Shown: one piece after another, positions 31,456 to 64,000 of the stretch
Numbering within the stretch: the first letter of the stretch is position 1
Layout: each line of letters opens with the position of its first letter
Virus record (IMG/VR): IMGVR_UViG_3300042937_001207
Reading direction: 5' to 3' (one strand)
From: an uncultured virus (IMG/VR IMGVR_UViG_3300042937_001207)
Taxonomy: Duplodnaviria; Heunggongvirae; Uroviricota; Caudoviricetes
Length of the DNA: 64,000 nt
Translations under genes and position numbers: made by a program
The notes under the pieces: generated by a model
What the model was told of the DNA's origin: nothing
Seen by the model: the letters and a program-made list of their open reading frames with translations, nothing else
Databases searched by the model: none

Positions 31456-34400
31456 ATGACTAACACGCACGAAACAGACGCAGACTACGAATATAAGTCC
31501 CTAACAGGGCAATTCAACATTGACGAAGCTCTCGGCATAGTCGAGTGCTTTGCTGCTGGTGTTGGGAATAAGGACTCTGTTGGCGATATTTGCCTCCCAG
31601 GGTGCTTTACAAATTCTTTGAAAAGAAGAAAGCCCCGGGTCGTATGGGGTCACAATTGGAATGAGCCAATCGGCAAAGTTTTGGAAATCTATGAAGTTGG
31701 TCCAAACGACCCTCGTCTTCCAGCAAAGATGAGAAAAGCCGGAATAGGTGGCCTTTATGCAAGAGTCCAATTTAATCTCAAAGCCGAAAGAGGCCGTGAG
31801 GCATTTGCAAATGTGTCATTCTTTGGTCTTGAGCAGGAGTGGTCAATAGGCTACAAAACTCTTGATGCAGTCTTTGACCCAACCCAGCAAGCAAACCTTT
31901 TGAAAGAAGTTGAGCTGTACGAGGTTTCTCCAGTTCTTCATGGAGCCAACCAGCTGACAGGCACTATCTCAATTAAATCGGATGAAGCTGTTAACGAAAA
32001 CAAAGATGGAATAGACGTAAAGCGTCAACCACTAAGAGACCCAAAGGGCGGTTTGACAGCAGCCGGTCGTGCTCATTTCAAGAGAACAGAAGGCGCAAAT
32101 CTAAAGCCTGGCGTTAAGGGTCCAGCTGACACACCAGAAAAGATGCGCCGCAAGGGTTCATTCCTCACAAGATTTTTTACAAACCCATCTGGCCCAATGA
32201 AGAAACCAAATGGAGAACCAACAAGACTTGCTCTTTCGGCGGCTGCATGGGGTGAGCCAGTTCCAAAGAATATGGAAGACGCTGCAAAACTTGCTGCAAA
32301 AGGAAGAAGACTTCTTGAGCGTTATAGCAATACAAAGAAAAAAGATGACAGCGAAAACTCGGAAACAAAGAACCATGTAAACGCAATTTACGAGGCAATG
32401 AACAGTGCAGAAAACTCCGTAGTTGGAAGAGCTGCCGACCTCACAAGAGCACTTGCTTCACACTTTGGCGGAGCGGTGAGACTTGTTAATGCCGATAACG
32501 ACATTGCAATTTTTGAGATGGGTGCCGGTCAGTCTGTTGAGACACTAAGAGTCGCTTACCACTTTGATGGTGACGAGTTCATGTTCGGAACGGCGCAACA
32601 AGTAAAACCAGAAACCGTCTACATTCCGGTTAACGGCTCAAATGGAAGCAGGGTTGGTGACAGCGGTGTTTCTAACGCAATGACTATTGCAATGAGTCCA
32701 GTTGGAGGTAGCTTGTACGACGCAATGTCTTTGGCTGCAGTTCCACATGACGCATGCTGCGACGATTGCGCAAAAGGGGAAAGTTCTTGTTCTGTAACAA
32801 AACAGCTGAGCACGCTAGAAGAATTTAAATCTTCAAATGCAGGAGAACACCTAATCCTAGTTCCAGAAGATAACAGCGAAAAAATTTCTGCTTTTGAAAT
32901 GATTAACCCAATTGCCCAGTATCACGAATTTGAAGTAAAAGTTCTCGAAAATGGAATTGTCATTCCGGATATCAACAATGTAAGCGCTGATGGTTACGAG
33001 GCTCTTTCTAATGTACTAAATGTTTTTGAGCAGAAAGCTATTGGCACTGCAATCGGAAAAACTCCAAGAAACATGAATGCGTGGACTGCTCGCAACGCTG
33101 ATAGTGACCCGTATGTTCTTGAGGGCATATCAACGATAAACAGAGGGCGCGGCGTAATTGACCCAACACCAGGGAGTGATTTTGGTATCCCAAAAGCACC
33201 AAAGTCAAGAGGCAAGAGGGGCGCATCTAAACCAAGACGCGCTAAGAGACCTGGCGAAGCAGACATGCCAGCTGTACCAAGACCAGTTGAAGTACCAGAA
33301 GAAATCCCAGAAATACAACCAGCGAAGCCAGCAATAAAACCGGCAAGACCAGCAACAGTTCCAGAAAGAAAACCAGACAAGGTTCCAGAACGTACACCCC
33401 AAAAAGAACCAGACAAGGTTCCTGAGCGTTGGCCTCAAAGGGAGCCCGAAAGAGTTCCACGGCCAACTCCTGCGCCACCACGCGTACCCGAAAGAGAGCC
33501 AGTCCCCGTACCACGACGAGACCCACAAAGAGTTCCTGAAAGAGTTCCGCAAAGAACCCCACAGAGGGCTTCAACTAGCCCAGTTGGCAGAATGTCGGAC
33601 GGTAGAAGATTCCCTAAGGAGCAACGTCCAGTCGATATGGATATGGCGGAAGAGGTATTTGACCGCTTTAATACCATTTCAAAAAACAAAAACACAGCAC
33701 GGGCGTATGAAGAGGTGGCCCGTAAGTTTGGCATTTCTCCTAGAACAGTTGAAAGATATATCAACGAAATGGGAAGAAGAAACAATAGGGACCTCCCTTA
33801 TGTTAAGCGACCAGAAGATGCTGGTGTCAAGGATGTTGATTCACCGCGTGGAAAAATGTCCTCAATACAAAGTGATTCCGACCTGTCACCTAGAGAAAAA
33901 AGAAGACTAAAAGAAGACAAAATAGGAAGACAGATATTCTTAGCAAGAGACAACGAGGGAATTTCGCTTGATGAAGCAGCATCAAGATTCAAGGTTTCGA
34001 GACAGAAAGCAAGACAGCTTGAACTAAGACACATGTCAAAGCTTCGTGGTCTTGACGAAAACAGTCCAAACAGAATCACCAGAAGAATGCTTGATGACCC
34101 TGCCTCAACTCTTACTGACGAACAAACAGATTTGATGAAGAGAAGACTTGATGGGGAAACTCTTCAAGAAGCAGCAGCAAGACTTGGCACGGATAGACAA
34201 ACAATAAGACGGCAAGAACAAATTGCAATGAGAAAGTTGCAAGACTCCATGGTAATTGACAATGGGCCAGTTGGCTCAATGGCAAATGCAAAATGGACGG
34301 AGTCAATAAGGGCAGCCGAGTCTGTCGACGATTTAAAAGGTCAAGATAGAAGCTTAGGCGAAAAACCTTTTAGCAGAATTTTCTACAGTGCCCCAGTTGG

Positions 34401-37400
34401 AAGAATGTCGGGCGGCGATGAAATCATTGACTTTGGTGACGAGTTCGGAGTAGTACGGTTTGGAACTGACGACGAAGAGGAAGATGCTGCTTTATTATTT
34501 GGTGAAGACGAGGTAATTTTTGATAGAGGCGACGGAAGTAAACCCGTTGTTGAGCGCGAAAGAATCCCATTATCAAAACCAGACGCAACACCAGCAGCCC
34601 CTGGGAAAACACGACTCCGTGGAGATGGAATCACGTGGGATTCAAAACCAACAACTTCGGGGCGGCCAATAATAGAAGTCACTCCACCGGTCATAACACC
34701 ATCCGCCCCAAGTCCATCAAGACTTCGTGGAACTGCAGTTGCACCAGAGACAACCCCGGAACGAACAAGACTACGTGGCACAGGAATTTCTATTGAAGCA
34801 GTACCCACTTTTTCTAGAGACCTTCCTGATACAAGGGCAGTTCCGCCAACGCCAATGTCAGTGACTGATTTGACAGACGACAAACCAATAGAGTATTTAA
34901 AGTTTGAGTCGTTGCCAAGACCAGAAGATACATGGTCTTATCAAAAAGGCTCAGATGAAGCAAACAACGCAATTGCTGATGCGCTTACAAGGGCTATTTT
35001 GGGTAGAGAAACACAATTGGATGTTGATTTAATAGACGAACTTCAAACAGCAGATGAATCAAGACTGATTAGCTCCATTGCTAAGAAAAAAATTAAAGAA
35101 GAAATTCCAAAACTTGACGATGAATCGCTTTTGGTAAGAAAAGAAGCAATCAATGAAACTATTCAAGCATGGAAAGACGACATCAAAGAGCTGTTTGACG
35201 AAAAAAGAACTGCTCGCAACAATAGAGATTTCATAGAATATCAAGAGATACAAGACAGCATTGATTTTGCAATGCCATTATTGACATCTTCAGAAGAACT
35301 GTTGGATGACGTAAATAAGGAAATAGCTAAACGAGGTCTTGTTTCAGGTCCTGTAGGAAAAATGTCTTCGTATGAAAGAGCTCTTCCGGATGGTTTTGCA
35401 TCTGAAGTTTTTGACTCAACTGGTCGTAAGAAGAGTTACTTAAAACAAAATGACTCTGATGACGCAGAGCTTGACGAGTATCTACCGAACATAATTAACA
35501 GCTTCTTGAGCAATTTCTCATTGACTGGAGAACCTTATTCTGGCAACAACTCTCCAGATGGTCCTTCTGGAGCAGTAAAAGCAATAAACAGAATTATCAG
35601 CAATAACAACAATGAAGAAAGTTCATACCCAGAAAAGCTGATGAGGAATGTTTACTCAAGTTTTGGAAATTCTCCAATTGAGCAAATAGCAAAACAAAAT
35701 GATATTTCAAGAGAAGATGTTGTAAAAATTGTAAAGGCTCAGGCAAATATTCTGTCCGCAACAGAGACTCCAGAGCGCTCTGAGATGCGATATCTAATGA
35801 GAGAACACGGATATCTGCTCGCAGGAACAGACAGAGACATAATGTCTCAAAAACTTTATGGAGCAACAAATGCGGATATTGCAAAAGACTTTAATTTAAG
35901 AATTGATGATGTTGATTCAAGACTTACAAAGTCTTTGCGAACTCTTAGAAAAGCAGATGGCTCAACGTCAAAGCCGCCATCTGTTTCAAACACCAGATAC
36001 GGAGTTGACGACGAAGGATTTTTTGTTGAAGCAGATGCAAGCGACGGCAGTTTCTACAAAAAGTACATAGGCAGGACCGAGCTTGGAGATGAAATAGATG
36101 ATTATTTTTCACCCGGCCCAGTTGGTGCCATGGCGATTCGACAGAACAAAAAAGTACGAATTTATGCCAATGCAGACGATGGGATAGTAGAAGAATACGA
36201 CTTTACAGAAGACCTTGCTGACGGTGTTCCAATGCAGGAGAAGCCATACCTCCGCAGAGTGCGTGGATTCAACCAACCAGAACTGCACGAAATGTTGGGC
36301 AGAAAACTTTTGGCAGAAGATGGTGGATACAACTACATGGTTGTTGATACTCCAGAGTATTCATTTGTTACTCAAACTGAGGCTCAGGCAATGGCTAGAG
36401 CTGCTGAGCGTGGAATGTTCCTTGACGATGAAATGTTTCCACAAGGTTTATTCCTTAACTCAGATGGAACCGAAGAATTGCGTCCTATACCAATTCAAAC
36501 TTCTCCAAGAGAAGGTTTGAGAGTTGTTTCATGGAATGACCGTGCTGGATACGATGGCGAGCCATCTTACTTCAGACTCGGCGGTACAGTTTTTGCAACT
36601 TCTGACATGTCTGAAAGCTGGGACGAGAGTGAAAGAAATGCAAAGCGAGTAGCTAGAAATAAGAAGTTGAGAAGACTTGAAAGTGGCCCCGATGAAAAAT
36701 TCTGGACCAAAGACTCGTGGAAGTGGAGATTCCAGGGCAGTGACGACTTGTCTGTTACAAAAAGTCCAAATACTCCAGACTTCGGTCCTTCGGTGATAGA
36801 AAAAATTCACACACTTAGAAATAGTCCAGATTTTGATGCTCTTAGAGCAACAGTAAACTCAAAAGATAAAAAAGACCTTACTGGACCAGAAAAGAACTAT
36901 TCAGTACTAAGCGATATGTACTACCAGTACGCAAAAAATGGCGGTCTTTCAGATAGACAGTGGTCTTACGCATCGTCATTGATTGACAAGTTCGAAAGCG
37001 GAGACGGTGGATACACTCTTGCACCAGGCGAAGAAGCTGTACTTAAAGTAAATAAAGAAACTGGCGAAATGCTGGGCGCAGACCCAGAAGATGCAAAACG
37101 TTTAGTAAATGCTGCACGAATGCTCGAACAGGATGATGCAGAGATTGAAAAAATTCTGTATAGGTACGACATTGATGGTGGATTGATGCCAGAGCAGTGG
37201 GACAGACTACGTGCTCTCACAAAGCAGAGAATGACAGAGAATAGAGCAGCACGGCAGGCTGGTCAAGCATCTGCAAGACCAAGCGCCCCAACAGTTGGCG
37301 TTAGTGCACCAAGTATTGATAAATCAGAAGTTGAAGACGATGGAAAACTTGTTTCTACTTATGTGAATAAGTTGACCGGCGAAATTACAAAGTACAGACA

Positions 37401-40400
37401 TAAAAATGTTGGTGCAAATGCTAATGGCCCAGTATTTTTGGTTGCAGAAGACGACAATGGCAATTTGGTCAAATGGAATCACCCAGTAGCTGGCGACCTG
37501 TTCTCATATGAAGACTGGCCACAAGAAGAGCTTGGTGAAATCTTTGATGAAACTACAGAAAAGATTAGAACCCAAAGAGGAAGACATCCAGCAACAGATG
37601 GCGTATTTATTTCGGCAAAGCCATGGGAAATTGAAGCAGACTTAAGGACGAAGGCTGGAGAAACAGTAACCGCACAAGAACTAAAGAGCGAGTACGAAAA
37701 ACTTGGTCTTTATGGTCTTGGCTCTGATTCATCCGGTCCAGTCATTGAAACCGACACTGAAATAATCCTTGGTAAAAACTTTACTGAATCAGACATTAGA
37801 AAAGCAATTAATGATGCAAGCGATTCTGGTCTTAAAATTTCTTTTGAATACCTAAAACCAGATGCAGACAGACCAGAAAAAAGAACATTGACTGAACCAA
37901 GATATGAAGAGCGTCTTGGGAAAAACGGTGAGATTCTTGCTGCATACATCGTCGGAATTGATGAAAAAGACGGTAAAGAAAAGAATTTCAGAACCGACAG
38001 AATATATGGCCGAAAATCTGAAAAACCAAAACCTCAGACGGATGACGAACAGCAAGCTGGATTCAGAAGACCTCGCCAAGACACGAAGAGACCAAGAGGC
38101 GAGTCAGAGAGAGAACCTCGTCGTCGTCCTAGCGACCAAGAATCGGACCGTCGTCAAGAGCAGTCACGGCCCAGTGACGAACAAGCACCACCAAGAGAGG
38201 AAGCAACCCCGAATCAAGAGCAAGCAAGACCAAGAGAACGCCAAACGGAAAGACAAAAAAGAACTGCTGAAATAATCTCAAGAACAAATTCTCTTAGAAG
38301 AGGTTTGCGAGAAAGGTCTCTGTTTATATCACTTGACGACAACCAGCAAACGGTTGCCAGTACACTCGCTACAGCTGACCGAGATGTCCTTGATGTTGAA
38401 TTTCCATATGGAAATAAAGTCTATGCTGTTGAACTTGTTAAGTTTGTAAAGAATGCTGATGGGAACGTCTCACTGCATGCTACAGATAAATCAGATAGTC
38501 AAAGAAAAATATTTGACCCGTACATGATTGCAGTAAGGTCTAGCTCCGAGCCAGTACCAACAGCTTTGCCTTATTTGCTTGAAGACCTAAGCCGCAGAAT
38601 TGGCAGTGACCAGAGAAGTTTTGCATTAGCCAGTGCTTCAGATATAGCCGCATACAATAGGGCAAAAGAAAAACTTGCTAGAGCTAGTAGACAAAACCAA
38701 ATAAACAGTTTTGATACTGGGCCACACGGAGCGCTTGGGTTGAATGCATCGCGTGTACCTAACTACTCGCCAACAGAGTTCTGGAAACCAAACAAACACG
38801 ATTCAACATATGCATCAATGCCATATGCTCAACGAAAAGCTGAATCACAAAGATTGCTGTCTAGAATACTCAACTCCGCAAACAGGAATGATTCACAACT
38901 CAATGACGTTCTTGATAGATATGTAGCACTCGAAAGAATAACCAAAACAGCAAACGGTCCATATGTTGACGAGTTTGGGGTTTCAATTACAAGACTTGAA
39001 AATGGCGAATACGAGATTTCTGGAAACATCCCGTTTGACCCAGAAATGAATTCTTCTCCGTTTGGGAAAATGGGCAGATATGTAAGGCCTAGAGATGCCC
39101 AAGAAAGAGTAATTGACGATTCTTACAATATTCAAATTTACAATGAGTTGACAGATTTGCTCAGCTCCGTGCCTGAGGGGCAAGCAATAGCTCAGCTGTC
39201 GCAGAGACATTCTACAAGTCAGCAAAACATAAGAAGAAGGCTAAATGTTGTTGACAGAGAAAGAGCAAATGAAATACGCTCACTTGATTCGGTTGACGAA
39301 ATAATAAGTCAACTTGAATCCGGAGACATAACATTTGACGAATTAGAAATGCGAATTGACTCCGACATGAGTCCAAGACAATTAATTAGAAATATTGATT
39401 ACGCATACCGTGAAATGAATTTCCAGCATGATGATTTTGGACCTGTTGGAGCCATGTCTGGCAAAAACACATCTGACATGTCAGACCAAGAACTCGTTGA
39501 TGCGTGGAACGATGCAATGGAAAAACTTTTTGGTTCTTATGGAAGACCACACAGGAAAGATAGAGCGGCAAAGTCGGCTCTAATGAAAGAACTCAAGTCG
39601 GTGGGAAGAGAAATTCAAAAAAGGTATTTTGAATCAGAAGATGCAAGAACTTTAATTAACGAAATAAAGCAAAACCCACCTCAGAGTCCGGCTGGTCTTA
39701 TGTCTTCAGGCTCAATGCCAGATAATCCAATTAGTGGTAGCAGACATGTTGACAGAAGACTTTATGAAGTTTACGGAGATGACAACTGGAAAAAAGTTGC
39801 CGAGCAAATTGGCCGAAGGTTCTCAAACATTGAGGAAAGAGACTGGGAAAACCCAACAGACGACGACCTAATTGACTTGCACCAGTACTTGACTCAAAGG
39901 ATATTTGATTCACACATGAGCGGCGAGGAACAGGGTGAACTTGGCGGGATACCCCTTGACATCCTCTCTGTGTCCGGGGATTTAGACATAACCCCAAATC
40001 AGGTTGTGGAATACTCCAAAAAAGGAAAAGACATAACTGAAGCACGTATAGCTGCTTTGATGACTCCGTTTGAAAGGGCTGAACGGATGATTCAAAACGA
40101 CAGACGTAAAACATTTGAGAGATTGATTTCAAGAAAACGAGCAGAGCTTGGTGAAGGTTTTTCTGATTGGTTCCAATCTGCTACTGAAAAAAATAAAAAT
40201 ATACTTTTTGATTCAAATGGCAATGAACGCTCAGTTGAAGAAATAGACGAATTAGGCGGACCTTTTGCTGGGTATTTCTCTTTTGGGCAAGAAACGACTG
40301 AGCCTGATGTTGATGTTGACACGGCTAGAGAAATTGAAGAACTTAACAAGTTGTTTAATAGTCCTACATTTGGTTCTGATGATGGAGATAGCAGCCCTGC

Positions 40401-41220
40401 TGGAAACATGGCTAGGCGATTTGTCCCACAAAGATACGACATTAGGCCCACAAACGATGGCAAATGGGAAATAATAGATACCGCAAACAGAAATGTTGTA
40501 GTTAGTCGTCCATTTGATAGCAGGCTAGAAGCTCTCGCTGGAGCTAAAAAGATGGACATGGGTGACACATCGTTCAATCCTTTTGCTCCACCAAAAGTTT
40601 TTGAACAAAAACCACCAAGCAGGCCTCAAGCAAATCCAAATCCAATAATTGAGTCTGGCGTTTACGAAAACGAACAGCCAGAGCTACCTTTTTCTGACGG
40701 CCCATTTGGTGAAATGAGAAGAATACCTGGAAGTAGGTATGTTTCAAATGACCCAGTTCGCAGAAATGGTGCAAGAGTAACAAAGGGCAACGCAGAAGCT
40801 GCAATAAGGGAATATGAAGAAGGCGACGCCGTGCTGCCTTTTGGTGGAGCAGAAGAGGCATCAGAATACATGCTCTTCTCTGGATGGACAGCCTCAGATG
40901 CTGCTTTGGACACGATAATTGGAAGACTTGAGTATTTGTCAAAAATGAGAACTCATGCCGGAGATGCCCGGGACAAAAAGAAAGCAGAAGTAAGAAAACT
41001 TGTTTCATATCTTCCAAAACTCCAGAAGCGCAGAAAATGGTTTTTCCTTCAGCTTAGAAGACAAATGCTCGAAAATAGAGACATAGATGGAGTTTCTCAA
41101 ATTGACGCAATGGAAAAAACGAGGAGCGGTTTCACTCTTGAGGACCCAATAACAATGAACTCTGCTAATTTCCCAAGATACAACATACCCGGAATCACTG
41201 TTCCGAGAGATAGAAGGTAA
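31456..41220 (+). CDS. giant multidomain protein with N-terminal HK97-family prohead protease
   Basis: WGHNWNEPIG, EWSIGY and LYEVSPVLHGAN in the first ~175 aa. Followed by a DUF6321-like domain, sigma4-like HTHs and WYL domains. ATG at 31456 after AGGTG. Confidence 0.88.
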   Translation: MTNTHETDADYEYKSLTGQFNIDEALGIVECFAAGVGNKDSVGDICLPGCFTNSLKRRKPRVVWGHNWNEPIGKVLEIYEVGPNDPRLPAKMRKAGIGGLYARVQFNLKAERGREAFANVSFFGLEQEWSIGYKTLDAVFDPTQQANLLKEVELYEVSPVLHGANQLTGTISIKSDEAVNENKDGIDVKRQPLRDPKGGLTAAGRAHFKRTEGANLKPGVKGPADTPEKMRRKGSFLTRFFTNPSGPMKKPNGEPTRLALSAAAWGEPVPKNMEDAAKLAAKGRRLLERYSNTKKKDDSENSETKNHVNAIYEAMNSAENSVVGRAADLTRALASHFGGAVRLVNADNDIAIFEMGAGQSVETLRVAYHFDGDEFMFGTAQQVKPETVYIPVNGSNGSRVGDSGVSNAMTIAMSPVGGSLYDAMSLAAVPHDACCDDCAKGESSCSVTKQLSTLEEFKSSNAGEHLILVPEDNSEKISAFEMINPIAQYHEFEVKVLENGIVIPDINNVSADGYEALSNVLNVFEQKAIGTAIGKTPRNMNAWTARNADSDPYVLEGISTINRGRGVIDPTPGSDFGIPKAPKSRGKRGASKPRRAKRPGEADMPAVPRPVEVPEEIPEIQPAKPAIKPARPATVPERKPDKVPERTPQKEPDKVPERWPQREPERVPRPTPAPPRVPEREPVPVPRRDPQRVPERVPQRTPQRASTSPVGRMSDGRRFPKEQRPVDMDMAEEVFDRFNTISKNKNTARAYEEVARKFGISPRTVERYINEMGRRNNRDLPYVKRPEDAGVKDVDSPRGKMSSIQSDSDLSPREKRRLKEDKIGRQIFLARDNEGISLDEAASRFKVSRQKARQLELRHMSKLRGLDENSPNRITRRMLDDPASTLTDEQTDLMKRRLDGETLQEAAARLGTDRQTIRRQEQIAMRKLQDSMVIDNGPVGSMANAKWTESIRAAESVDDLKGQDRSLGEKPFSRIFYSAPVGRMSGGDEIIDFGDEFGVVRFGTDDEEEDAALLFGEDEVIFDRGDGSKPVVERERIPLSKPDATPAAPGKTRLRGDGITWDSKPTTSGRPIIEVTPPVITPSAPSPSRLRGTAVAPETTPERTRLRGTGISIEAVPTFSRDLPDTRAVPPTPMSVTDLTDDKPIEYLKFESLPRPEDTWSYQKGSDEANNAIADALTRAILGRETQLDVDLIDELQTADESRLISSIAKKKIKEEIPKLDDESLLVRKEAINETIQAWKDDIKELFDEKRTARNNRDFIEYQEIQDSIDFAMPLLTSSEELLDDVNKEIAKRGLVSGPVGKMSSYERALPDGFASEVFDSTGRKKSYLKQNDSDDAELDEYLPNIINSFLSNFSLTGEPYSGNNSPDGPSGAVKAINRIISNNNNEESSYPEKLMRNVYSSFGNSPIEQIAKQNDISREDVVKIVKAQANILSATETPERSEMRYLMREHGYLLAGTDRDIMSQKLYGATNADIAKDFNLRIDDVDSRLTKSLRTLRKADGSTSKPPSVSNTRYGVDDEGFFVEADASDGSFYKKYIGRTELGDEIDDYFSPGPVGAMAIRQNKKVRIYANADDGIVEEYDFTEDLADGVPMQEKPYLRRVRGFNQPELHEMLGRKLLAEDGGYNYMVVDTPEYSFVTQTEAQAMARAAERGMFLDDEMFPQGLFLNSDGTEELRPIPIQTSPREGLRVVSWNDRAGYDGEPSYFRLGGTVFATSDMSESWDESERNAKRVARNKKLRRLESGPDEKFWTKDSWKWRFQGSDDLSVTKSPNTPDFGPSVIEKIHTLRNSPDFDALRATVNSKDKKDLTGPEKNYSVLSDMYYQYAKNGGLSDRQWSYASSLIDKFESGDGGYTLAPGEEAVLKVNKETGEMLGADPEDAKRLVNAARMLEQDDAEIEKILYRYDIDGGLMPEQWDRLRALTKQRMTENRAARQAGQASARPSAPTVGVSAPSIDKSEVEDDGKLVSTYVNKLTGEITKYRHKNVGANANGPVFLVAEDDNGNLVKWNHPVAGDLFSYEDWPQEELGEIFDETTEKIRTQRGRHPATDGVFISAKPWEIEADLRTKAGETVTAQELKSEYEKLGLYGLGSDSSGPVIETDTEIILGKNFTESDIRKAINDASDSGLKISFEYLKPDADRPEKRTLTEPRYEERLGKNGEILAAYIVGIDEKDGKEKNFRTDRIYGRKSEKPKPQTDDEQQAGFRRPRQDTKRPRGESEREPRRRPSDQESDRRQEQSRPSDEQAPPREEATPNQEQARPRERQTERQKRTAEIISRTNSLRRGLRERSLFISLDDNQQTVASTLATADRDVLDVEFPYGNKVYAVELVKFVKNADGNVSLHATDKSDSQRKIFDPYMIAVRSSSEPVPTALPYLLEDLSRRIGSDQRSFALASASDIAAYNRAKEKLARASRQNQINSFDTGPHGALGLNASRVPNYSPTEFWKPNKHDSTYASMPYAQRKAESQRLLSRILNSANRNDSQLNDVLDRYVALERITKTANGPYVDEFGVSITRLENGEYEISGNIPFDPEMNSSPFGKMGRYVRPRDAQERVIDDSYNIQIYNELTDLLSSVPEGQAIAQLSQRHSTSQQNIRRRLNVVDRERANEIRSLDSVDEIISQLESGDITFDELEMRIDSDMSPRQLIRNIDYAYREMNFQHDDFGPVGAMSGKNTSDMSDQELVDAWNDAMEKLFGSYGRPHRKDRAAKSALMKELKSVGREIQKRYFESEDARTLINEIKQNPPQSPAGLMSSGSMPDNPISGSRHVDRRLYEVYGDDNWKKVAEQIGRRFSNIEERDWENPTDDDLIDLHQYLTQRIFDSHMSGEEQGELGGIPLDILSVSGDLDITPNQVVEYSKKGKDITEARIAALMTPFERAERMIQNDRRKTFERLISRKRAELGEGFSDWFQSATEKNKNILFDSNGNERSVEEIDELGGPFAGYFSFGQETTEPDVDVDTAREIEELNKLFNSPTFGSDDGDSSPAGNMARRFVPQRYDIRPTNDGKWEIIDTANRNVVVSRPFDSRLEALAGAKKMDMGDTSFNPFAPPKVFEQKPPSRPQANPNPIIESGVYENEQPELPFSDGPFGEMRRIPGSRYVSNDPVRRNGARVTKGNAEAAIREYEEGDAVLPFGGAEEASEYMLFSGWTASDAALDTIIGRLEYLSKMRTHAGDARDKKKAEVRKLVSYLPKLQKRRKWFFLQLRRQMLENRDIDGVSQIDAMEKTRSGFTLEDPITMNSANFPRYNIPGITVPRDRR
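33034..33171 (+). repeat. shared peptide module A, copy 1
   Basis: KAIG...TARNADSDPYVLEGISTINRGRGVIDPTP, nearly identical in protein to 43586-43723. Confidence 0.85.
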
Positions 41221-41226
41221 TTTGAC

Positions 41227-43513: not shown

Positions 43514-46069
43514 ATGGCCGAACCAACCAATAACAAAAAGTCATCAAACAGGTCTTCACGGAAGATAGTCAAAAACCTTGGCGCCAAGGCCCTTGGGATG
43601 CCTGTGGGCTCTTCTGGTAGGAACCTTAACCCAACGACTGCTCGCAACGCAGACAGCGACCCGTATGTGCTCGAAGGCATCTCATTCATCAACAGGGGGC
43701 GAGGCGTAATTGACCCAACACCGAACGGTCCAGCCGGAAGAGTGGAGGGCAATAGGTCCAATAGAAGAAGAGCTAGAGATTTCGTTAATCGGGCGGTATC
43801 AAAAGACGAACCTGTAACAGACCCAGCTTTTGATTTGGACGACGAGTCGCAGCCTTCGTTGTTTGGTCAAGATGAATTGTTTGACGATTTTGAGTTTGAT
43901 GATATGAGCTCGGCTGAAGTTGGTAACAAACTCACCGAATTTGAAGAAGAAGAACTTGAAATAAACTACAACGACGCATGGCGCGCATATCTTGAAGACG
44001 CAGGGTTAGACCCGAACTTTGAGGAATCTTATGAATTCCCTCCTCCAAACTTTTACGAAACAATGGACAGCAATGAAAATTTTGAGCCACAGTCCGACAT
44101 TCTTTCCGGGTACAACAGGCCGTCTTCAATTTTGCCCAAAAGCACAATACCAAGAGCACGGTTTATAAATACCACCCCATACGGTGGGGACAGATTTGTT
44201 GTAACTCATCAGGCACTGGAGTTAGCAAAGCATAGGCAACTGGCAGATTCAGAACAGTGGAGAAAAATACATAATGACCACTATGACTGGTGGTTGTTCC
44301 CGATTGACAGGGGGAGCGGTGCATACGGAGAGAAATATAACATTGCGGGAAAACCGCTGAAAAGACTTAAAAGAAATAGAAGATTTTTAAAAAATGTTGC
44401 TGAAGCTATCAAAATAAACGCATTAGCACTTGGCTGGGATGTGGAGTCTTCGCAGTATATTGAAGACATAAATTGGGACGCTGGTCAAGACCCGTGGGTT
44501 GCATACCCAACAAGAATATGGAAAATGACACGCTCCGCCCAAGTCCTAGGGCTAAAAAAAGAGTTTGAATCATTGCTTCTAATGCAACAATCGCTTGAAG
44601 ATGGCGGAATAAAGTTCAACCATCAGGACTATTGGGAAAATCCAGGCGACATAAATAACATAAAACAGTCAAAGTATGAAACAAAAGAACCCAACAATCC
44701 ATCAGGTAACATTTCTTCATTAAGTGCACTGCTTAATACCAGCATGGAAAACGGCGTTGTAAATCAAAGGAAAAAACTGGGAATATCAATTTCCGCAAAT
44801 CCCTTGTACTCCTGGACTACGGCAAATCCAACAGAAAACAATGTAGACAACTATTCTTCGCCGGGAAACAGCATTGAAGATATTTTCGGATTTAGTAGCT
44901 TTGCCGATGGGGAGGCTGTTGACTGGTTTGACTTCTGGCTGATGACAAATGACATACAGCCATTGATAGAAAAACACATTGGCGACAACTTTAAAAAAAA
45001 TGAGCTATTAGAAAAAACTGGTTACAGCCTACTTGGCAGAACCCCTTCGGATTATATTTTGTCAATACTAAAAGGGGATAGCAAAAACCCAGCAAAAGAG
45101 CAATACAAAGCTTTTGACATTCGTCGAGCAGGAACCTATTTTATGGGTGTTAATGGGGTTGACGAAGAGTTAATAAATTACGAAAACTTTAATAACTATT
45201 TTAAAAACTCAAATGCAAATATTCAAAAAAACAATGGCATAAAAATAACATCAACTATTGACGGCTGGAAAGTTGAAATAGGAAATAATCCGCCACTTCT
45301 TTGGTCAATATCCCAAGACGAAAGAGAATCCGTTACCGAACAGATGTTCAGCAGTTTAAATGATGATTTTGATGATTCTAAAGTAACCCCAAACTATGAA
45401 GACTTAAAAAAATTCTTCAAGTTACTGGAAGAAAGGCAGGTTAGTTTTAGCGGTTCAAAATCAAAAGCTGGGGTTTCTGCTTTTCTTGACGGCGGAGCCG
45501 CTGGGGCGATGTCCAGTGGTGCTTCAAAAAACTACTCAAGAGGGTATTCAGGGGTAACGGATGGGGTTCCGCTCTGGGAAAAGCTTTCTGGAGCCAAAGC
45601 GTCCACATCAAACCCCGTACATACTGTCAATCGTTTACTTGAGGCCGGCGCCCTAAGTATCGGTCCAGACGGTTTACCAGAGGGCCCAATGACAGACACC
45701 GAACTAAGAGACTGGTTTGGTTTTGCTTTTATGGCGAATGATTTTGGATTAATAAATAATGGGTATCTATCTAACAAAAAATCCATGGATAGAGAAAATG
45801 CTTTAAAAATGCTAAAACTACTATCAGAGAACAATGCCGAAAGTTCAGAAAAAACACGGAAAAAAATACGAGCAGCCGGGTATGACCTAGTGGCGAAATC
45901 TATAGAAGTTGATAAAAACATTGATGACCTTAGTGTCCGGTCAACGCCATTTGGGTACGTGTATACAGATTTTAAAAATAACAAGACCTACAATTGGTCC
46001 ACGACATCCGACAACCTAACATCAAGGATTAGCTCAATTATTGACGGGTACGAAGAAGCCTCTTCGTAA
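43514..46069 (+). CDS. module-A protein with OGFr-like domain
   Basis: IHNDHYDWWLFPIDRGS...RIWKMTRSAQVLG resembles the OGFr_N motifs H.YIQWLFP and RITRILKSL..LG. Confidence 0.65.
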   Translation: MAEPTNNKKSSNRSSRKIVKNLGAKALGMPVGSSGRNLNPTTARNADSDPYVLEGISFINRGRGVIDPTPNGPAGRVEGNRSNRRRARDFVNRAVSKDEPVTDPAFDLDDESQPSLFGQDELFDDFEFDDMSSAEVGNKLTEFEEEELEINYNDAWRAYLEDAGLDPNFEESYEFPPPNFYETMDSNENFEPQSDILSGYNRPSSILPKSTIPRARFINTTPYGGDRFVVTHQALELAKHRQLADSEQWRKIHNDHYDWWLFPIDRGSGAYGEKYNIAGKPLKRLKRNRRFLKNVAEAIKINALALGWDVESSQYIEDINWDAGQDPWVAYPTRIWKMTRSAQVLGLKKEFESLLLMQQSLEDGGIKFNHQDYWENPGDINNIKQSKYETKEPNNPSGNISSLSALLNTSMENGVVNQRKKLGISISANPLYSWTTANPTENNVDNYSSPGNSIEDIFGFSSFADGEAVDWFDFWLMTNDIQPLIEKHIGDNFKKNELLEKTGYSLLGRTPSDYILSILKGDSKNPAKEQYKAFDIRRAGTYFMGVNGVDEELINYENFNNYFKNSNANIQKNNGIKITSTIDGWKVEIGNNPPLLWSISQDERESVTEQMFSSLNDDFDDSKVTPNYEDLKKFFKLLEERQVSFSGSKSKAGVSAFLDGGAAGAMSSGASKNYSRGYSGVTDGVPLWEKLSGAKASTSNPVHTVNRLLEAGALSIGPDGLPEGPMTDTELRDWFGFAFMANDFGLINNGYLSNKKSMDRENALKMLKLLSENNAESSEKTRKKIRAAGYDLVAKSIEVDKNIDDLSVRSTPFGYVYTDFKNNKTYNWSTTSDNLTSRISSIIDGYEEASS
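43586..43723 (+). repeat. shared peptide module A, copy 2
   Basis: KALG...TARNADSDPYVLEGISFINRGRGVIDPTP. Confidence 0.85.
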
Positions 46070-49100: not shown

Positions 49101-51384
49101 ACATGAACGACCTGGTTCCCCAGTCGGGGCAATGCGGGCAGCAACAAACACGGCAACTCCAGATACATTTTCTCCAAACATAGAAAATAGGCGTGCAAGA
49201 AGAAATAAAATAAAAAAACAAAAACCAGATAAAAGATTTTCTGCTGTTCAATCAATATCGACTATTGCATCCGAAAGACAGAACTCAGCTGGTCCAATTG
49301 GGCGTATTGAAAAATATCCACTCCCACGGCCAACAGCGAACGATTGGCTGTATGACATCAATGGAGTAAAACAAAAAATCGATGAAATAGAATCAAAAGT
49401 AGATTCAATGTTTAGGGGTAAACCCAAAAAACTAAGACATGCCATGGAAAATATTCGCTCAATTGTAGAAATGATGAATAATTCTGGAATAAACACAGAA
49501 GTAACCCCATCGTATTTCCTGCTTTCATCGATGCCCGCACTAAAAGATGCGCTCGGAGGCAGATATTCTGGTCCTGGAACACCAATATCACCAGCTGAGC
49601 TTGGAGCGTACTACGCTCTAATGCATCACCTAATGGAATACCCTGAAGCCTTCAGAGATGTTTCTCTTGACTTTAGCGCTCTCAACATGCCTGACCAGCC
49701 AGCACAAAATGCACCCGGTGGAACAACAGCGATACTGCCAACATACATGGAATTTACACAAAACAGGTTAAGTATTGCTTCTCCAGGAATTCGTCCAGAT
49801 GTACAACTACCCGGTCTTGAAGGTCGCGTGATTGTTTCGGACGCTGGAATAGATGACATGACCCAGGTCGGCGTATCAATTAATCCAAAGCTCAGACGAG
49901 CAAAAAAGGGAATAATGGTTTCACTTCCAGCAATACCATACAATCAAGGTAAGAATCCAGTGTTCTTTGTTCCTGGGATTGGTGATATTCAACTGCAACT
50001 TGAAGAAATTCCAAACGGAATAGTTGATGCAACCATAACCACAATGCTTGAAATGGCAACAAACAAAGACCAAACCTCTGACGGGATTATGGATACAACA
50101 ATAGCAACGGCCGTATCTCAGCTATCTCAAGAAATAGCAAACAAATACGAAGAAGCGATGAGCCTTGCGCGCCAAAAACCAGCACAAAGAAATCAAATAG
50201 TTTCAAATGCAACACGTGAAGCAATTGATGGATTTGACGAAATGTTGAGAATTTCCACATTTTTAGTAGGAGTGCACGAATTTGGACACCTGCTTGATGG
50301 AGTTGGAAACTGGAGAAACTCAAAAAACGCATCAAACAAAAATTCAGGAAACGGTCTGAATTCCGCACGTGAATTTAGGTTGGCAGTAGCAGAATTGTCA
50401 GCAATTGAGTCCGGCATGCAGTCACCTTTCGTAGATGATATTGCAGATACATATGCAACTAAATTTTTTACAGAACAGGTAAGAGACGCTATTCAAACAA
50501 AAATTTCACACGACCAAATGATAAAAGAAATTCCTGCAATGATTGACGAAAGAAACAGACTTGCGGAATTACTAATTGACGCTGAAACCAACCTGTCCTC
50601 TTCAATGGCTGGAGCCGGTTTGCTGGATATAAGAAACAGCATGGAAGACGCTCTTTCAAGTGGCTCAGGGATTGAGGCTATTCTGAACTCGATACTTGGC
50701 TCAATCGGCGGCCGAACCCAAGATGAATCGCTGCAACAACTTCAGGAAATGCGGGAAACTTTGACTGTGATGGATAGTCAGCTTATGCAGGCAAAACAAA
50801 TGATGGATTTGTTTCAAAATAAATTACAAAATCTAGTCCCTATTTTGAAATGGCTAAACAGTCAGACATTCGCACTAGACAGAGCTGGTTATGTGACCAC
50901 CGACATTTTAACTGGAAACAAGAATGCAGTAGACGAGTTTATGCAAAACTTTGCAAAAACTGTTTATGGAAAAAATAGCTGGTTTGATGCAAACGGAAAA
51001 TTTGATAAATCAAAATATGTTGCTTCTGTAATTGAGAAAGTTAACGATGATTCTCTCTACCAACAACTTTTAACGAATGTGACCGAGTTGATTAACATGC
51101 AGGATAACAATGGCTGGAAAAACTTATCCGATGAAGAAATTGAAGGAATAGCAGCTCTCTTGCCATACATATCCATATACGCCGGACCAGCCTATTACCC
51201 AGGACAAAAACCAGCAAAAAACTACGTGCAATCCAATGCTGAAGGTTATGCAGAATTGCATGTTGCAAAAATACTTGAACAGGCTGGTGGGCTTGCACAG
51301 TTCTCCGAACAGGAGAAAGACCTTCTTGATAGGCTTCATTCAAGAATGATTGAATGGGCTTCAGGAAATGGTGAAGGGATGTAA
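46141..51384 (+). CDS. 1747-codon double-zincin protein interrupted by one in-frame TAA (47788-47790)
   Basis: ORFs 46141..47790 and 47893..51384 are in the same frame and the gap is open (IDADEFGNTFG...). HELNH and HEFGH motifs are present. Confidence 0.75.
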
Positions 51385-58768: not shown

Positions 58769-58777
58769 GCAGTCAAA

Positions 58778-60095: not shown

Positions 60096-63000
60096 ATGAC
60101 GAACGAATTTGAGCAGGGCGACTGTTGCCCTATAGAAAATGAAACCCAGGAAAAATCACTGAGTTTCGGTTCTCGTTCTATAAGACCCGGCTCACCGGAC
60201 GCATTCACTGATAAAGAATTAGCAAGACAAAGAGCGAGACAGCTTGGATGCATCGGTATACGACAGTACAGCTCAACATCTGGAGGCTTTGTATGGATGC
60301 CCTGCACCAATGAGTCTGACTACAGAAGAGTGACCGGTCAAAGCCCGCTCGGTAGAAGAAACCAAGACAGAGATTTTGCACAAAGAGTTAGACGCGTTAT
60401 CAACAAAAAAACACTAGAAGAAAAAGCACTCGGCCCAAATGTTGGTCAGGCAATTGGCTCTGTTCCTAGAAACATGGACGCAACGACAGCCCGCGATGCG
60501 GATAAAGACAAACGCGTATTGGAAGGTATTGCAGAGGTCAACTTTGGACGAGGAATACCGGACCCAACACCAGGTGGTAATGCTGCAGAAAAGCCAGAAA
60601 CAGTAGCTGGTGCCGTTTTTGAGAACATCGTTGAAGCTCCGCCCAAAATTGCACCACCGCTCCCGGACGTAGACATTGAAGCAGTACCAAAGCCAAAAGC
60701 TTCAGCACCAAACAGACCAAGGCCAGTAAAAACACCAAAAAGACTTGGGGCAACAAGCGGGCCGAGGCAAGAACAAACAATCGGACCAGCTGGTGCAATT
60801 TCAAGAAATCATAAGTCTAATGAAGAAAGAACATACGGTTCTTACATAAGCAATGTGCCCAAGGAATTTGCACTTCCAGAAGAAGCTGAGTTACGCAAAA
60901 AAGTACTGGACATTCTTTTTGACGAAGAAGCAAGGGCTTCTGAATACTATCAAGGAGAAATAAATAGAACTACAGATAAAGTAAATGAATCTGGGGTTGC
61001 AAAATTAAAAACAATGCTTTCCGACGAAGGCCTTGCAAAACAACTGTTTGATGAGAATGTCATAGAACAAGCTAGGCAATGGTGGGATGAAGAGTTTGAA
61101 ATTCTTTCTTCACTATTCATGAGCAAACTGCAAGCTGCAGATTTGGATGAAAGAGACTTTGACGCTGCATTAAATGAGTATCAACTTGAAGCATCGGTAT
61201 CTATTGATGAAGGAATTAACGCTGATGTAATGAAGGGGCTTACCTACAATGGCAGACGTGATGCATATGGTTGGTTAATTGCAGAAGACATAGCTAAGAA
61301 AGTGAGTTCTGGACACAGTTTGGCTTCTTTTGGTGCGCGTGTAGCGGTCGAGACAATGCAAAGTGCAACATTTATTGGCGATGATTCACCGGCTTTGAGA
61401 ATGTTTGGAGCAATGGAAAATGACCCAAAGTTTACCAAGCTTGGGCTGATTGCGCCAATTAATTTAATTGACATACCAGCTTCTCGAAAAGTTTTTAGAA
61501 ATCTAATGCGTCTTGCAACAAAGTCACGAGAGCTTTCAGACTCATTTGAAAATAATCCATTTGAGAAATCATTACTTGGTTCTGTGTTTAGTGCATTTGC
61601 TATGTCAATGTTTATGCGTGGAGGCACACCATCTTTTGATGAAGCAAATATTGAAACATACCTACCTAATTTTGCATACAACGAAGAATCCGCTGCAATC
61701 ATGTTTAGGTTTGCAGAATTACTTGACTCTGTTGATACAAGACTTGTTGATTACAAAGAATCTTTGAGAAGGGCTCGTTCGGAAGTCATCAATTCAAACA
61801 GGGATTTGGCTTATGAAAAACAACAAGAAAGAATAAATCAAGACACAGGTCTAGACCTGCCAACAGATGGTTCTTCATTTGTAAAAAATACAGACTCAAA
61901 AAATAATGTAAAAATTGCAAGTAGATTAGCTGTTTTGTCAAGTTTGACAGATGATGAACTTATGAATCTTGCAAAAAATATTGAACGAACTGGTTTATTC
62001 AGAAAACAAAATCAAACTAACAATTTTATTGAAGACCTTCAGCCGCTTTCACTAGACGGAGCGTTCAAGACTGCAAAAAGAATCACAGACCTATCAAACG
62101 GAAAGATAAACCTTTCGGAACTAGCGGGTGCTCTATATACACCAAACTTTTTTGATGGATGGATGAACCGTGACGGATTGTCGCAGACCTGGGAATCGTA
62201 TCTAAAATTCGGCAAAAACTCAAGAACACATGCTGCCCTAAAAAAAATGACACCAGAAAAAAGGTCTCAATTTCTTGGAGTTGACACAGAGATTGCTGAC
62301 ATGCTTGTTGCAAGAGCTCAAGAAGATTTCCTGTTATGGACTGATGACTCAGAAGCTTTTTCCGGTGATTTGGTAACCACACTAGAGGAATTGAAGTTGC
62401 TAGCTAAGGACGATTCTCTTTTTGACAACCCGAACCCACATCCGAACTACCCACTCCAATGGGGAAATTCAATAGCAAAGTCAGTATCTCACCCGGTAGA
62501 GCAATTTATTCATGCTCTATCCCTCAGAGATATGCAACTAAAAGAAATCTGGGAAAACTCTCATACAAATTCAACAAAACGTGCGATAGATGGGCTTCTT
62601 GGAGAAAATCTAGAGGGTGCGCGAAGTACAGCATTCAAGATTGCTTCTTATTTACTACCAGGAACCCTGCTATCTGAAATAACGGATAACGAAGATGACG
62701 AAATCCCCGCAACAGTCGTTGCCCTAAAGAGACAATTGAACAGATACGACCAAAAAGGCCGTTCCTTTATTGACTACGCCATAATGGCTGACGTTCAAGA
62801 AAATAAAAATAAAAATAGCGTTCTTGAAAGAAATGAAAACCTTGTAAATGCTCTTGGAATAATAAGCACGGCTATTAGAACACTTGGCGCATATGGTGAC
62901 GAAATAAACACAATCAATGGAAATATAAAAGATGTAAATAATTCCATCGCTTCAGAAATATCTGAAGAAAACGATGAATCTTTTGCAGAACTTGTTGAAA

Positions 63001-64000
63001 ACTACATGGATGCAGCCCCATTCGCATGGGGCCCAAGCGGAGCAATGGCAAGGCGCTCTGGCTCGGACTATCCAAGAGAAAAAAGACAGTCTGGAGCATG
63101 GAGCCCTCTTGCTAATTATGCGCAATCAAGCATGTATCTTGATTACAAAAATAGAAGAACAAGAAAAAACCTTGATATATCAAACTCGATAGATGCAAAT
63201 CAATCTGAAATATTTAACGAAATTTCAGAGCTAATGCTAACCCTTAGGGAGCGTGTTTCAAACAACTCACTAAGACTACTTGATTACGCAAAATCATATG
63301 ACCAAAAAACTGGAAATCTAGTTCTTGATTTCTACAACCCAAGAAAGCCTACTTCTGCCCTTGGTGATAGTCCCGGTCTATTAAAATCCATAACAATGCT
63401 ACTAGCCATAGCATCTAATAATGCCAGAAATAATAACGAGCGTTCTGAGGCTAGAAGCATTCTAAACGAACTTCTTGATTGGGCCGAAGTTTACTTGCCA
63501 CAGTATTCCAAAATTAGACCTAAAAATAATAATTCTCTTTCCGAGATGCTTTTAAACGGTCCAGTTGGAAAGCTTGGTGCAAAAGAAGCTTACGATGCGC
63601 TGGAAAACAAAAAATACAAAACACTTAAACAACGACTCCAGGCTTTTGACAATAAGTCCAAAGATATAGTTTTTGACTCAGTTGCAGACAAGAATCCAAG
63701 TTCCAAGCTCAGAGAGCTAGAAACAGAACTTGATGAAATAATCTCGGAAGGCTGGATGAACGAAAGAGTTCTGTCCAGCTTGTTTGAGTCAATTTCGGGT
63801 CACATGGACGATGTATTTGAAGAAGGAATTTCTGAAAGAACAAGAAATCGAATGCGTCCGGTATTTGATGGCTTTGCAAATGCAATGAAGTCCAAGTACA
63901 GCAAGGAATATTCAGAAGCTTTTGGAATGATAAATCTGGATTCAATCCAGAGAAAACGCCGTAGAGCAAATGTCCGGATGTCGCAGGAGACACCAGACTC
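60096..64000 (+). CDS. large module-A/C protein (>1300 aa, runs off window)
   Basis: Not in the ORF track because there is no stop. ATG at 60096, MTNEFEQGDCCP... It contains LGCIG...WMPC, module A at 60423-60572, and GPAGAI, GPSGAM and GPVGKL. Confidence 0.8.
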   Translation, partial: MTNEFEQGDCCPIENETQEKSLSFGSRSIRPGSPDAFTDKELARQRARQLGCIGIRQYSSTSGGFVWMPCTNESDYRRVTGQSPLGRRNQDRDFAQRVRRVINKKTLEEKALGPNVGQAIGSVPRNMDATTARDADKDKRVLEGIAEVNFGRGIPDPTPGGNAAEKPETVAGAVFENIVEAPPKIAPPLPDVDIEAVPKPKASAPNRPRPVKTPKRLGATSGPRQEQTIGPAGAISRNHKSNEERTYGSYISNVPKEFALPEEAELRKKVLDILFDEEARASEYYQGEINRTTDKVNESGVAKLKTMLSDEGLAKQLFDENVIEQARQWWDEEFEILSSLFMSKLQAADLDERDFDAALNEYQLEASVSIDEGINADVMKGLTYNGRRDAYGWLIAEDIAKKVSSGHSLASFGARVAVETMQSATFIGDDSPALRMFGAMENDPKFTKLGLIAPINLIDIPASRKVFRNLMRLATKSRELSDSFENNPFEKSLLGSVFSAFAMSMFMRGGTPSFDEANIETYLPNFAYNEESAAIMFRFAELLDSVDTRLVDYKESLRRARSEVINSNRDLAYEKQQERINQDTGLDLPTDGSSFVKNTDSKNNVKIASRLAVLSSLTDDELMNLAKNIERTGLFRKQNQTNNFIEDLQPLSLDGAFKTAKRITDLSNGKINLSELAGALYTPNFFDGWMNRDGLSQTWESYLKFGKNSRTHAALKKMTPEKRSQFLGVDTEIADMLVARAQEDFLLWTDDSEAFSGDLVTTLEELKLLAKDDSLFDNPNPHPNYPLQWGNSIAKSVSHPVEQFIHALSLRDMQLKEIWENSHTNSTKRAIDGLLGENLEGARSTAFKIASYLLPGTLLSEITDNEDDEIPATVVALKRQLNRYDQKGRSFIDYAIMADVQENKNKNSVLERNENLVNALGIISTAIRTLGAYGDEINTINGNIKDVNNSIASEISEENDESFAELVENYMDAAPFAWGPSGAMARRSGSDYPREKRQSGAWSPLANYAQSSMYLDYKNRRTRKNLDISNSIDANQSEIFNEISELMLTLRERVSNNSLRLLDYAKSYDQKTGNLVLDFYNPRKPTSALGDSPGLLKSITMLLAIASNNARNNNERSEARSILNELLDWAEVYLPQYSKIRPKNNNSLSEMLLNGPVGKLGAKEAYDALENKKYKTLKQRLQAFDNKSKDIVFDSVADKNPSSKLRELETELDEIISEGWMNERVLSSLFESISGHMDDVFEEGISERTRNRMRPVFDGFANAMKSKYSKEYSEAFGMINLDSIQRKRRRANVRMSQETPD

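Follow-up and report, generated by a model that had tools for sequence, protein, structure and literature searches.

Recurrent Gly-Pro-x-Gly-x-Met linkers in the giant head-cluster proteins of an uncultured tailed phage may mark processing sites of capsid-loaded polyproteins

A 64,000-nucleotide stretch of DNA from an uncultured tailed phage (IMG/VR record IMGVR_UViG_3300042937_001207, Caudoviricetes; the whole stretch is referred to here as the window) encodes a protein of 3256 residues that opens with an HK97-type prohead serine protease domain of the Peptidase_S78 family (S78) and is punctuated along most of its length by a short recurrent peptide, [G/S/A]-P-x-G-x-M. Why does the same peptide return between otherwise unrelated modules, both in this giant open reading frame (ORF) and in its neighbors within the head gene cluster? 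On the evidence set out below, we consider it probable that the motif marks proteolytic processing sites in cargo polyproteins that are loaded into the capsid and cut by the fused HK97-type protease.

When each set of ORFs is compared with residue shuffles of itself, the pattern [GSA]P.G.[MLIV] proves to be a property of the head cluster. The giant ORF holds 13 copies where 0.60-0.61 are expected, a count reached in 0 of 5000 and 0 of 2000 shuffles, and 11 against 0.07 if the pattern has to end in Met. The other 13 plus-strand ORFs, pooled, hold 9 against 1.34 (0 of 2000 shuffles), while the 29 minus-strand ORFs for tail and DNA metabolism stay at chance, with 1 against 1.56, which 1580 of 2000 shuffles reach. 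The window total comes to 21 copies plus a degenerate GAAGAM, spread over five ORFs. A relative known from a complete record (G002; 173,962 bp with terminal repeats), whose DNA matches that of the window at 77-91% identity in the aligned blocks, behaves in the same way. Among its 169 non-overlapping ORFs of at least 80 residues each, the four between protease and capsid gene (3190, 852, 1748, and 5345 residues) contain 33 copies against 1.69 expected and the remaining 165 contain 6 against 7.55; for the Met-ending form, the corresponding figures are 22 against 0.22 and 0 against 0.71. Blind word discovery, which covers all gapped three- and four-residue words, ranks PVG.M first in the head cluster of the window, with P.G.M and GP.G.M also at the top, and GP.G.M first in that of G002 (16 against 0.09 expected).

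These counts bear out the enrichment over shuffled sequence, confined to the head cluster, that follows from an earlier note on this DNA. All 21 motif coordinates listed in that note are correct (13 in the giant ORF and 8 elsewhere), but one further match, GPDGSI in the 549-residue carrier, was left out, and the motif occurs in four other head-cluster ORFs (43514-46069, 46141-47790, 47893-51384, and 60096-63998), not three as claimed. The length of 3254 residues given there for the giant protein agrees with database record P0001; from the GTG start, it is 3256.

The constraint on the motif lies in the protein. The fixed Gly and Pro positions are written with four Gly codons and three Pro codons, and because the codons at these positions vary, selection acts on the amino acids, as had been proposed earlier from synonymous variation. 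The sites share the logo [D/S]-[S/D]-[G/S]-P-[V/I]-G-x-M-[A/S/G], in which a small residue follows the Met at 11 of the 14 window sites and 19 of the 22 sites in G002. Conservation across eight aligned relatives reaches 92-100% at the fixed positions and 76-78% at the two x positions, against 90% overall. Met makes up 2.2% of the giant ORF.

The giant ORF is flanked by the portal gene and further head genes. Its first ~700 residues form a core in common with relatives whose protease proteins measure just 586-1078 residues. This core ends in a segment that recurs in other motif carriers (see below) and is followed by a Pro/Arg/Glu-rich spacer, the first site, and then the modules (Table 1). The segments between sites range from 42 to 868 residues, in good agreement with the earlier estimate of about 40-870. 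Recognized domains comprise S78, DUF6321, and at least two helix-turn-helix (HTH) domains resembling sigma-70 region 4, the other modules being unassigned. A sequence search of the PDB with the first 300 residues returned no match. Modules 8-11 (residues 1562-2751), compared with 1.84 billion representative proteins, gave two matches only, one clade member and one 209-residue fragment, and no stand-alone homologs of these modules as separate genes were found in that set. The spacer itself is made of V-P-x-R-x-P-like repeats, and comparable duplicated Pro-rich blocks are present in the short protease proteins of relatives. The giant ORF also contains two A7 runs, at 35086 (residue 1213) and 40187 (residue 2913), with a stop in the -1 frame after one codon; short and long forms produced at slippery runs were ruled out, as these are the only two A7 runs and neither lies at the junction of core and cargo.

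Predicted structures place the sites in linkers between domains. Two AlphaFold2 models (residues 690-1600 and 2330-3256, built from alignments of four and five sequences) together cover all 13 sites and, although poor overall (mean predicted local distance difference test score, pLDDT, 48.7 and 48.9), put every one of them in a stretch of pLDDT below 50. Such stretches take up 60-63% of residues, which gives a chance of about 0.002 under random placement. Each of the three confident domains in the first of these models, A2 (27-107, 123-244, and 476-609), has a site 1-6 residues from its border, and no Pfam domain spans a site, either in the giant ORF (S78, DUF6321, and two HTH domains) or among the five found in the 5345-residue protein of G002. 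A Foldseek comparison of model A2 with the PDB gave no match at E<=0.001.

Homologous proteins indicate that the sites persist while the modules between them change, a pattern that the earlier note had also anticipated. Ten giant homologs of 2242-3801 residues were found among 5.8 billion proteins, and nine of them carry 9-15 sites. Module-sized gains and losses in this set mostly run from site to site. P0004 has a 100-residue insertion with both borders one column from sites; P0002, P0005, and P0006 have deletions of 76-84 residues with borders 4-21 columns from sites; and P0007 lacks 440 residues, with borders 13 and 2 columns away, P0008 having an equivalent deletion. A 414-residue C-terminal insertion in P0004 carries its own site. 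Smaller indels of 25-77 residues fall inside modules.

The carriers have a second element in common, a segment of 45-60 residues. The copy in the giant ORF is 58% identical to residues 25-88 of ORF 43514 and 37% identical to residues 106-216 of ORF 60096. Searches with a hidden Markov model (HMM) built from it bring up 13 copies across five genomes, at most one to a protein and always upstream of the first site; three window, three G002, one G003, and five G004 proteins have it. The segment lies near the N terminus in ORF 43514 only and is internal in three carriers. By analogy with known capsid-targeting sequences, it represents a putative capsid-docking or targeting element.

In G002, the homolog of ORF 43514 has GPVGQM and GPIGSM at the two corresponding places. 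ORFs 46141-47790 and 47893-51384, the second of which starts with TTG, are a single 1748-residue ORF in G002, and their separation in the window could be a true split or a sequencing or assembly difference. ORF 47893-51384 contains two HExxH strings and matches no Pfam family. The homolog of ORF 60096 reaches 5345 residues with 14 sites and lies directly 5' of the capsid gene (107709-123746 in reoriented G002 coordinates). Pfam recognizes DUF3721, HTH_23, Clp_N, NUDIX, and Zeta_toxin/AAA_33 in it, the last three in its final modules and each within its own inter-site segment.

More distant relatives use other letters at the same places. With the first 300 residues of the giant ORF as query, IMG/VR yielded 338 relatives, and the best 80 of these were retained. 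In the distant giants L014 and L015, the sites align in position and differ in sequence, following [GE]-P-x-[AS]-[AS]-M in L014/G003 and [EDS]-A-G-M in L015/G004. In G004, [EDS]AGM[SAGT] reaches 24 copies where 0.32 are expected, divided among four separate proteins (10, 3, 3, and 8 copies), and blind word discovery independently puts EAGM first; in G005, [IVL][SAV]G[SA]M[SAT] occurs 7 times against 0.03 in four proteins; and P0010 has [ST]-G-x-M-[SA] ten times. Each dialect pattern scores 0-2 in the other lineages, and most lineages keep a common core of small residue, x, Met, and small residue. Because the motif shifts jointly in the separate proteins of a given genome, its reader would be encoded by, or constant for, that genome; concerted dialects of this kind are what a genome-encoded reader, for example a protease, would produce. 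In three G004 proteins, the first Met site past the shared segment reads F-A-[VIL]-A-A-M (residues 80, 173, and 684), a second, distinct conserved junction near the docking segment.

Table 1. Coordinates of the head-cluster features discussed in the text (window positions; residue numbers refer to the protein concerned).
Feature	Coordinates	Strand	Remarks
Portal fused to MuF-like domain, start of head cluster	29117..31366	+	Pfam Phage_portal 1.6e-50, Phage_Mu_F 8e-10; PHROG portal 1.5e-95
3256-residue protease-headed precursor (GTG start 31450; 3254 residues in record P0001)	31450..41220	+	13 sites giving 14 segments
HK97-type prohead serine protease domain, residues 30-173	31537..31968	+	Pfam Peptidase_S78 4.9e-11, 43.5 bits against cut-off 21
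DUF6321 domain, residues 196-267	32035..32250	+	Pfam PF19846 6e-29
Shared targeting-like segment, residues 523-579	33016..33186	+	HMM hit 4e-31
Pro/Arg/Glu-rich spacer from shared segment to first site, residues 600-709	33247..33576	+	VP.R.P word 7 against 0.10 expected
SPVGRM, residue 710, followed by HTH module	33577..33594	+	in low-pLDDT 1-26 of model A2, abutting confident domain 27-107
SPRGKM, residue 798	33841..33858	+	low-pLDDT linker 108-122 separating two confident domains (model A2)
GPVGSM, residue 939	34264..34281	+	5 residues past confident domain 123-244; L014 counterpart EPTSSM
APVGRM, residue 981	34390..34407	+	coil, pLDDT <50; absent, with the site at 1300, in the deletion of P0007, P0008, and L010
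GPVGKM, residue 1300	35347..35364	+	begins 2 residues past confident helical domain 476-609 of model A2
GPSGAV, residue 1371, doubtful site	35560..35577	+	Met in 0/8 aligned relatives; flanks highly conserved
GPVGAM, residue 1556	36115..36132	+	L015 counterpart GPSAGM
GPHGAL, residue 2424	38719..38736	+	L014 counterpart GPTGSM; pLDDT ~25
SPFGKM, residue 2536	39055..39072	+	low-pLDDT coil; L014 without motif at the aligned place
GPVGAM, residue 2664	39439..39456	+	L014 counterpart GPTAAM; Gly, Pro, Met, and next Ser invariant (alignment A1)
SPAGLM, residue 2746	39685..39702	+	L014 counterpart GPTASM
SPAGNM, residue 2982	40393..40410	+	L014 counterpart EPTAAM
GPFGEM, residue 3084	40699..40716	+	long coil, pLDDT ~26
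851-residue carrier; shared segment at residues 18-75 (43565-43738)	43514..46069	+	GPAGRV 43727, GAAGAM 45494
549-residue carrier	46141..47790	+	GPDGSI 46858, GPVGRM 47071
1163-residue carrier; weak copy of shared segment at about residues 368-405 (48994-49107)	47893..51384	+	SPVGAM 49117, GPIGRI 49291
Carrier of at least 1301 residues, continuing past window end; shared segment at residues 104-164 (60405-60587)	60096..63998	+	N-terminal DUF3721; GPAGAI 60783, GPSGAM 63030, GPVGKL 63558

These features suggest the following sequence of events. The single shared segment of each carrier would dock the protein inside the assembling procapsid, as the capsid-targeting sequences of T4 and P1 do; behind it would come the spacer, the first [G/S]-P-x-G-x-M site, and then unrelated modules chained by further sites. 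The S78 serine protease, with which the largest carrier opens (residues 1-180), would cut the chains inside the procapsid, likeliest between the Met and the small residue, and would thereby free about a dozen pieces from the 3256-residue protein and up to 37 from the four G002 proteins. The freed modules would remain inside the head and pass into the host along with the DNA, among them the sigma-70 region 4-like HTH domains of the window and the zeta-toxin-like kinase and NUDIX domain of G002. Packaging, cutting, the cutting enzyme, the scissile bond, and delivery are all steps that we infer. The earlier polyprotein interpretation stands in part, namely the protein-level signal specific to the head cluster, the linker position, the turnover of modules, and an intact-looking S78 protease, with cleavage remaining a reading of the sequence.

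Which enzyme would cut? The fused S78 protease is the obvious candidate to read the sites, and by its sequence it looks intact. His68 and Ser132, which we take by analogy with HK97 to be the catalytic pair, are invariant in 53 of 53 aligned N termini, including that of the annotated protease of Gordonia phage Hanem, and His164 is present in 52 of the 53; the N terminus also matches the PHROG head maturation protease at 2.1e-30. In every lineage examined, the protease is joined to a site-bearing tail, even in short forms of 780-990 residues. A complex prediction for the protease domain (A3) with a 51-residue site-bearing stretch (A4) scored 0.01 against a mark of 0.32 and weighs neither way. 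In relatives, the capsid protein (PF05065) is extended at its N terminus by about 100 residues, and the extension ends at Lys or Met followed by Ser. Because a small residue likewise follows the Met of most motif copies, a cut after the Met fits better than one before it, and would probably leave Ser, Ala, or Gly at the new N termini. The earlier suggestion that many of the released proteins start with Met is doubtful for the same reason.

Several observations weigh against processing by the S78 protease at this motif. The likely maturation border of the capsid protein, Lys-Ser/Thr in four of five lineages and Met-Ser in G002, comes without G-P-x-G, so the protease need not require these letters. 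The protease domain is 73-99% identical among lineages with differing dialects, and the dialects could thus be founder effects of linker spread instead of changes in specificity. The dialect patterns were picked after inspecting the sequences; G007 has a different motif, G-[ML]-R-S-x-[RK], in 12 copies across five proteins, and blind word search found no recurrent motif in G006. Given the poor models, location in a low-confidence linker is only moderately specific, and giant virion proteins such as the N4 virion RNA polymerase can be packaged uncut, as mentioned in PMC5512222. The first two of these cautions agree with a protease that chiefly demands a small residue preceded by a long unbranched one (Met, Lys, perhaps Arg), in which case the upstream letters would be a lineage habit carried along as the linkers spread. 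They are just as compatible with another enzyme.

That the sites are cleaved by such an enzyme, either a second phage peptidase (for example, an HExxH-bearing head protein) or a host protease acting after injection, seems unlikely to us, although a likely capsid border that lacks the motif and an S78 domain that barely changes between lineages of different dialect speak for it. Each lineage has at least one head-cluster protein with an HExxH string, and the processing of polyvalent proteins has been ascribed mainly to zincin-like peptidases (Iyer, Burroughs, Anand, de Souza, and Aravind 2017, PMC5512222). For a host protease, host-specific dialects would follow too. However, the HExxH-bearing proteins match no Pfam peptidase family, S78 being the sole peptidase family found, and the string is short enough to be expected by chance in long proteins; what the earlier note called zincin domains are bare HExxH strings without Pfam support. 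The motif array is, moreover, physically fused to S78 throughout the lineages examined, including the short forms, and the pair of Met and small residue stays constant across most lineages, like the protease.

We give an equally low probability to the proposal that the motif acts as a hinge or docking peptide and stays uncut, with the giant proteins remaining whole and the motif serving flexibility or the binding of the inner capsid surface, DNA, or a chaperone. Interdomain linkers rich in Gly and Pro are common, the sites lie in predicted coil, cleavage is something that we infer, and some giant virion proteins are packaged intact, according to PMC5512222. Against this, generic linkers have no fixed six-residue register and no invariant Met, a rare residue here, followed by a small one; here G, P, G, and M stay fixed, and the x positions change more quickly than the flanks. 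In addition, separate proteins have a site downstream of a targeting-like segment, an order known from propeptides that combine targeting with cleavage. A nucleic-acid or translational feature, that is, a recombination signal joining cassettes or an internal start at the Met codon of the motif, is very improbable: the site-to-site gain and loss of modules speaks for it, as does the ATG that ends 14 of the 20 tabulated sites, but the Gly and Pro codons vary and leave no conserved DNA word, the conservation lies upstream of the Met and at the protein level, the other 6 sites end in GTA, CTT, GTG, or ATT, and the 25 bases before the motif ATGs lack a Shine-Dalgarno-like element at the spacing seen before many real starts.

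We give slightly less than an even chance to a wider and more tentative picture. A widespread family of uncultured large phages may devote about a quarter of the genome to true polyproteins, in which a docking segment is combined with a cut code of small residue, x, and Met before a small residue, and in which the dialect of this code drifts genome-wide. Chains of up to 5345 residues, one of them with the HK97-type capsid protease at its front, would be loaded into the head and cut into dozens of proteins to supply a fast-evolving injected arsenal. The term effector modules, used in the earlier note, is doubtful for the window, where only HTH/sigma-70 region 4 domains are recognized, and is better borne out by the zeta-toxin-like kinase, NUDIX, and Clp_N domains in the 5345-residue homolog of the relative.

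How does this compare with known head processing systems? The system appears to be a variant of both T4/phiKZ-style head processing and the polyvalent proteins. With T4 gp21, phiKZ, 201phi2-1, and SPN3US, it shares a phage head protease and one short motif that recurs in many head proteins. In SPN3US, the protease gp245 cuts at A-x-E, at 14 sites in nine head or ejection proteins, and 13 of these 14 cuts remove an N-terminal propeptide; propeptides of this type are thought to target proteins into the prohead (both in PMC10052503). In contrast to the T4/phiKZ type, the protease here is of the HK97/S78 type and unlike T4 gp21, and Met takes the place of Glu at the end of the motif. In contrast to SPN3US, 9-15 internal sites chain unrelated modules in proteins of 2242-5345 residues, the protease heads one of the chains, and cutting, proven there, is predicted here. 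T4 internal proteins and Alt, as well as P1 DarB, offer a parallel for the shared segment, as a transferable segment directs unrelated proteins into the capsid and is removed by the head protease in T4 (PMC9024508). P1 DarB uses its N-terminal 30 residues (PMC9024508), whereas the segment here measures 45-60 residues and is mostly internal.

The polyvalent proteins, described in PMC5512222 as combining 2-15 distinct domains per polypeptide, with a zincin-like metallopeptidase in ~36% of members, have been proposed to be packaged, injected, and processed into effectors, mainly by zincin-like peptidases (Iyer et al. 2017, PMC5512222). They resemble the proteins described here in being giant multidomain proteins encoded among virion genes and in containing NUDIX and HTH domains (PMC5512222). 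The two differ in that most modules here match no known family and that, in place of a zincin-like domain, only bare HExxH strings are found. The assemblin-like peptidase of polyvalent proteins is always C-terminal according to PMC5512222, whereas S78 here is N-terminal, at residues 30-173 of 3256. The word linker does not occur in the main text of PMC5512222, so no inter-domain motif of this kind appears to be described there.

HK97 itself has a related protease. There, gp4 removes an N-terminal piece of about 104 residues from the capsid protein gp5 (PMC9024508). The gp4 protease belongs to the same Pfam S78 family, and the capsid protein of the relatives likewise has an N-terminal extension of about 100 residues, which may be removed too. 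In contrast, gp4 is small, free-standing, and located beside the capsid gene without a cargo array, while the protease here is part of a 3256-residue protein and lies, in G002, about 45 kb from the capsid gene. Picornavirus 3C-type polyproteins and herpesvirus assemblin sites are similar in that one ORF includes its own protease and in that a conserved junction peptide places a small residue just past the presumed cut. By fold class, assemblin belongs with the S78 proteases (PMC5512222). Unlike in RNA viruses, the setting is a tailed phage with a double-stranded DNA genome, the chains would carry head cargo and not replication machinery, and several chains share the code. Four features set the present case apart: the family to which the protease belongs, the motif ending in Met, how many internal sites each chain has, and the N-terminal protease heading one chain. 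No paper naming DUF6321/PF19846 or describing the family or the motif was found in open-access PubMed Central and bioRxiv.

The surroundings of the carriers identify the window as part of a tailed phage genome. The minus strand encodes sheath, tube, baseplate, fiber, recombination, ParB/PAPS-reductase, and large terminase proteins, and the plus strand begins at 29117 with the portal-MuF fusion, followed by the giant ORF. The capsid gene falls outside the window; in G002, about 45 of the 174 kb separate the start of the protease from the capsid gene (PF05065, 4.6e-45), which lies about 36 kb beyond the giant ORF. The closest cultured phages are Gordonia phages of Bendigovirus, Brevibacterium phage Cantare, and Streptomyces phage Gilgamesh, whose similarity is confined to the portal or protease domain (identity about 40%); beyond these domains, no further protein in common with the window was found in them.

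Some neighboring genes have features of their own. Downstream of the giant ORF, a 524-residue protein (41925-43499, plus strand) is conserved at 52-70% identity in six of six compared lineages and matches no family. A Cys-rich ribbon at the N terminus is followed by a long low-complexity middle rich in Asp, Glu, and Met, and the C-terminal part contains the string C-x-N-C-P-G-G-C; residues 407-474 of the protein are 48% identical to residues 93-161 of a small upstream ORF (41227-41727, plus strand). It could be a scaffold-like or inner-core protein. A role as the capsid protein was ruled out, as its atlas neighbors are unnamed viral clusters and the capsid gene of G002 lies elsewhere, and the string CGAM in it was rejected as a site, since it sits in the Cys-rich ribbon and its Met is Thr or Ile in other lineages. 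DUF3721 (about 30 residues, Pfam PF12518) is N-terminal in two adjacent head-cluster proteins (59197-60030, plus strand, and 60096-60314), the first of which additionally has DUF5872 and matches two PHROGs of unknown function. On the minus strand, at 20163-22666, a PAPS-reductase-like protein (PHROG 2302, 3.2e-75) lies between two ParB-like proteins, a gene trio that in phages is often tied to DNA modification. Outside the head cluster of G002, the blind word search brings up LH..PR, H.APR, and LH.A.R, 16-17 times each against about 0.1 expected, together with many PP..PP runs, which suggests a repeated unit in another protein.

What would follow depends on whether the sites are cut. If they are, motif-directed head processing, so far a matter of T4-like and phiKZ-like phages, would take in the HK97-type protease family as well, and would go from the trimming of propeptides to the dismantling of chains of 10-15 unrelated modules. 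A docking segment combined with a cut site would then provide a rule for identifying packaged, and probably injected, proteins in uncultured phages, whose arsenals would evolve by site-to-site swapping of modules. Polyprotein expression like that of RNA viruses would be used by a phage with double-stranded DNA, through a simple and portable tag-and-cut rule that may offer a handle for loading chosen proteins into phage heads.

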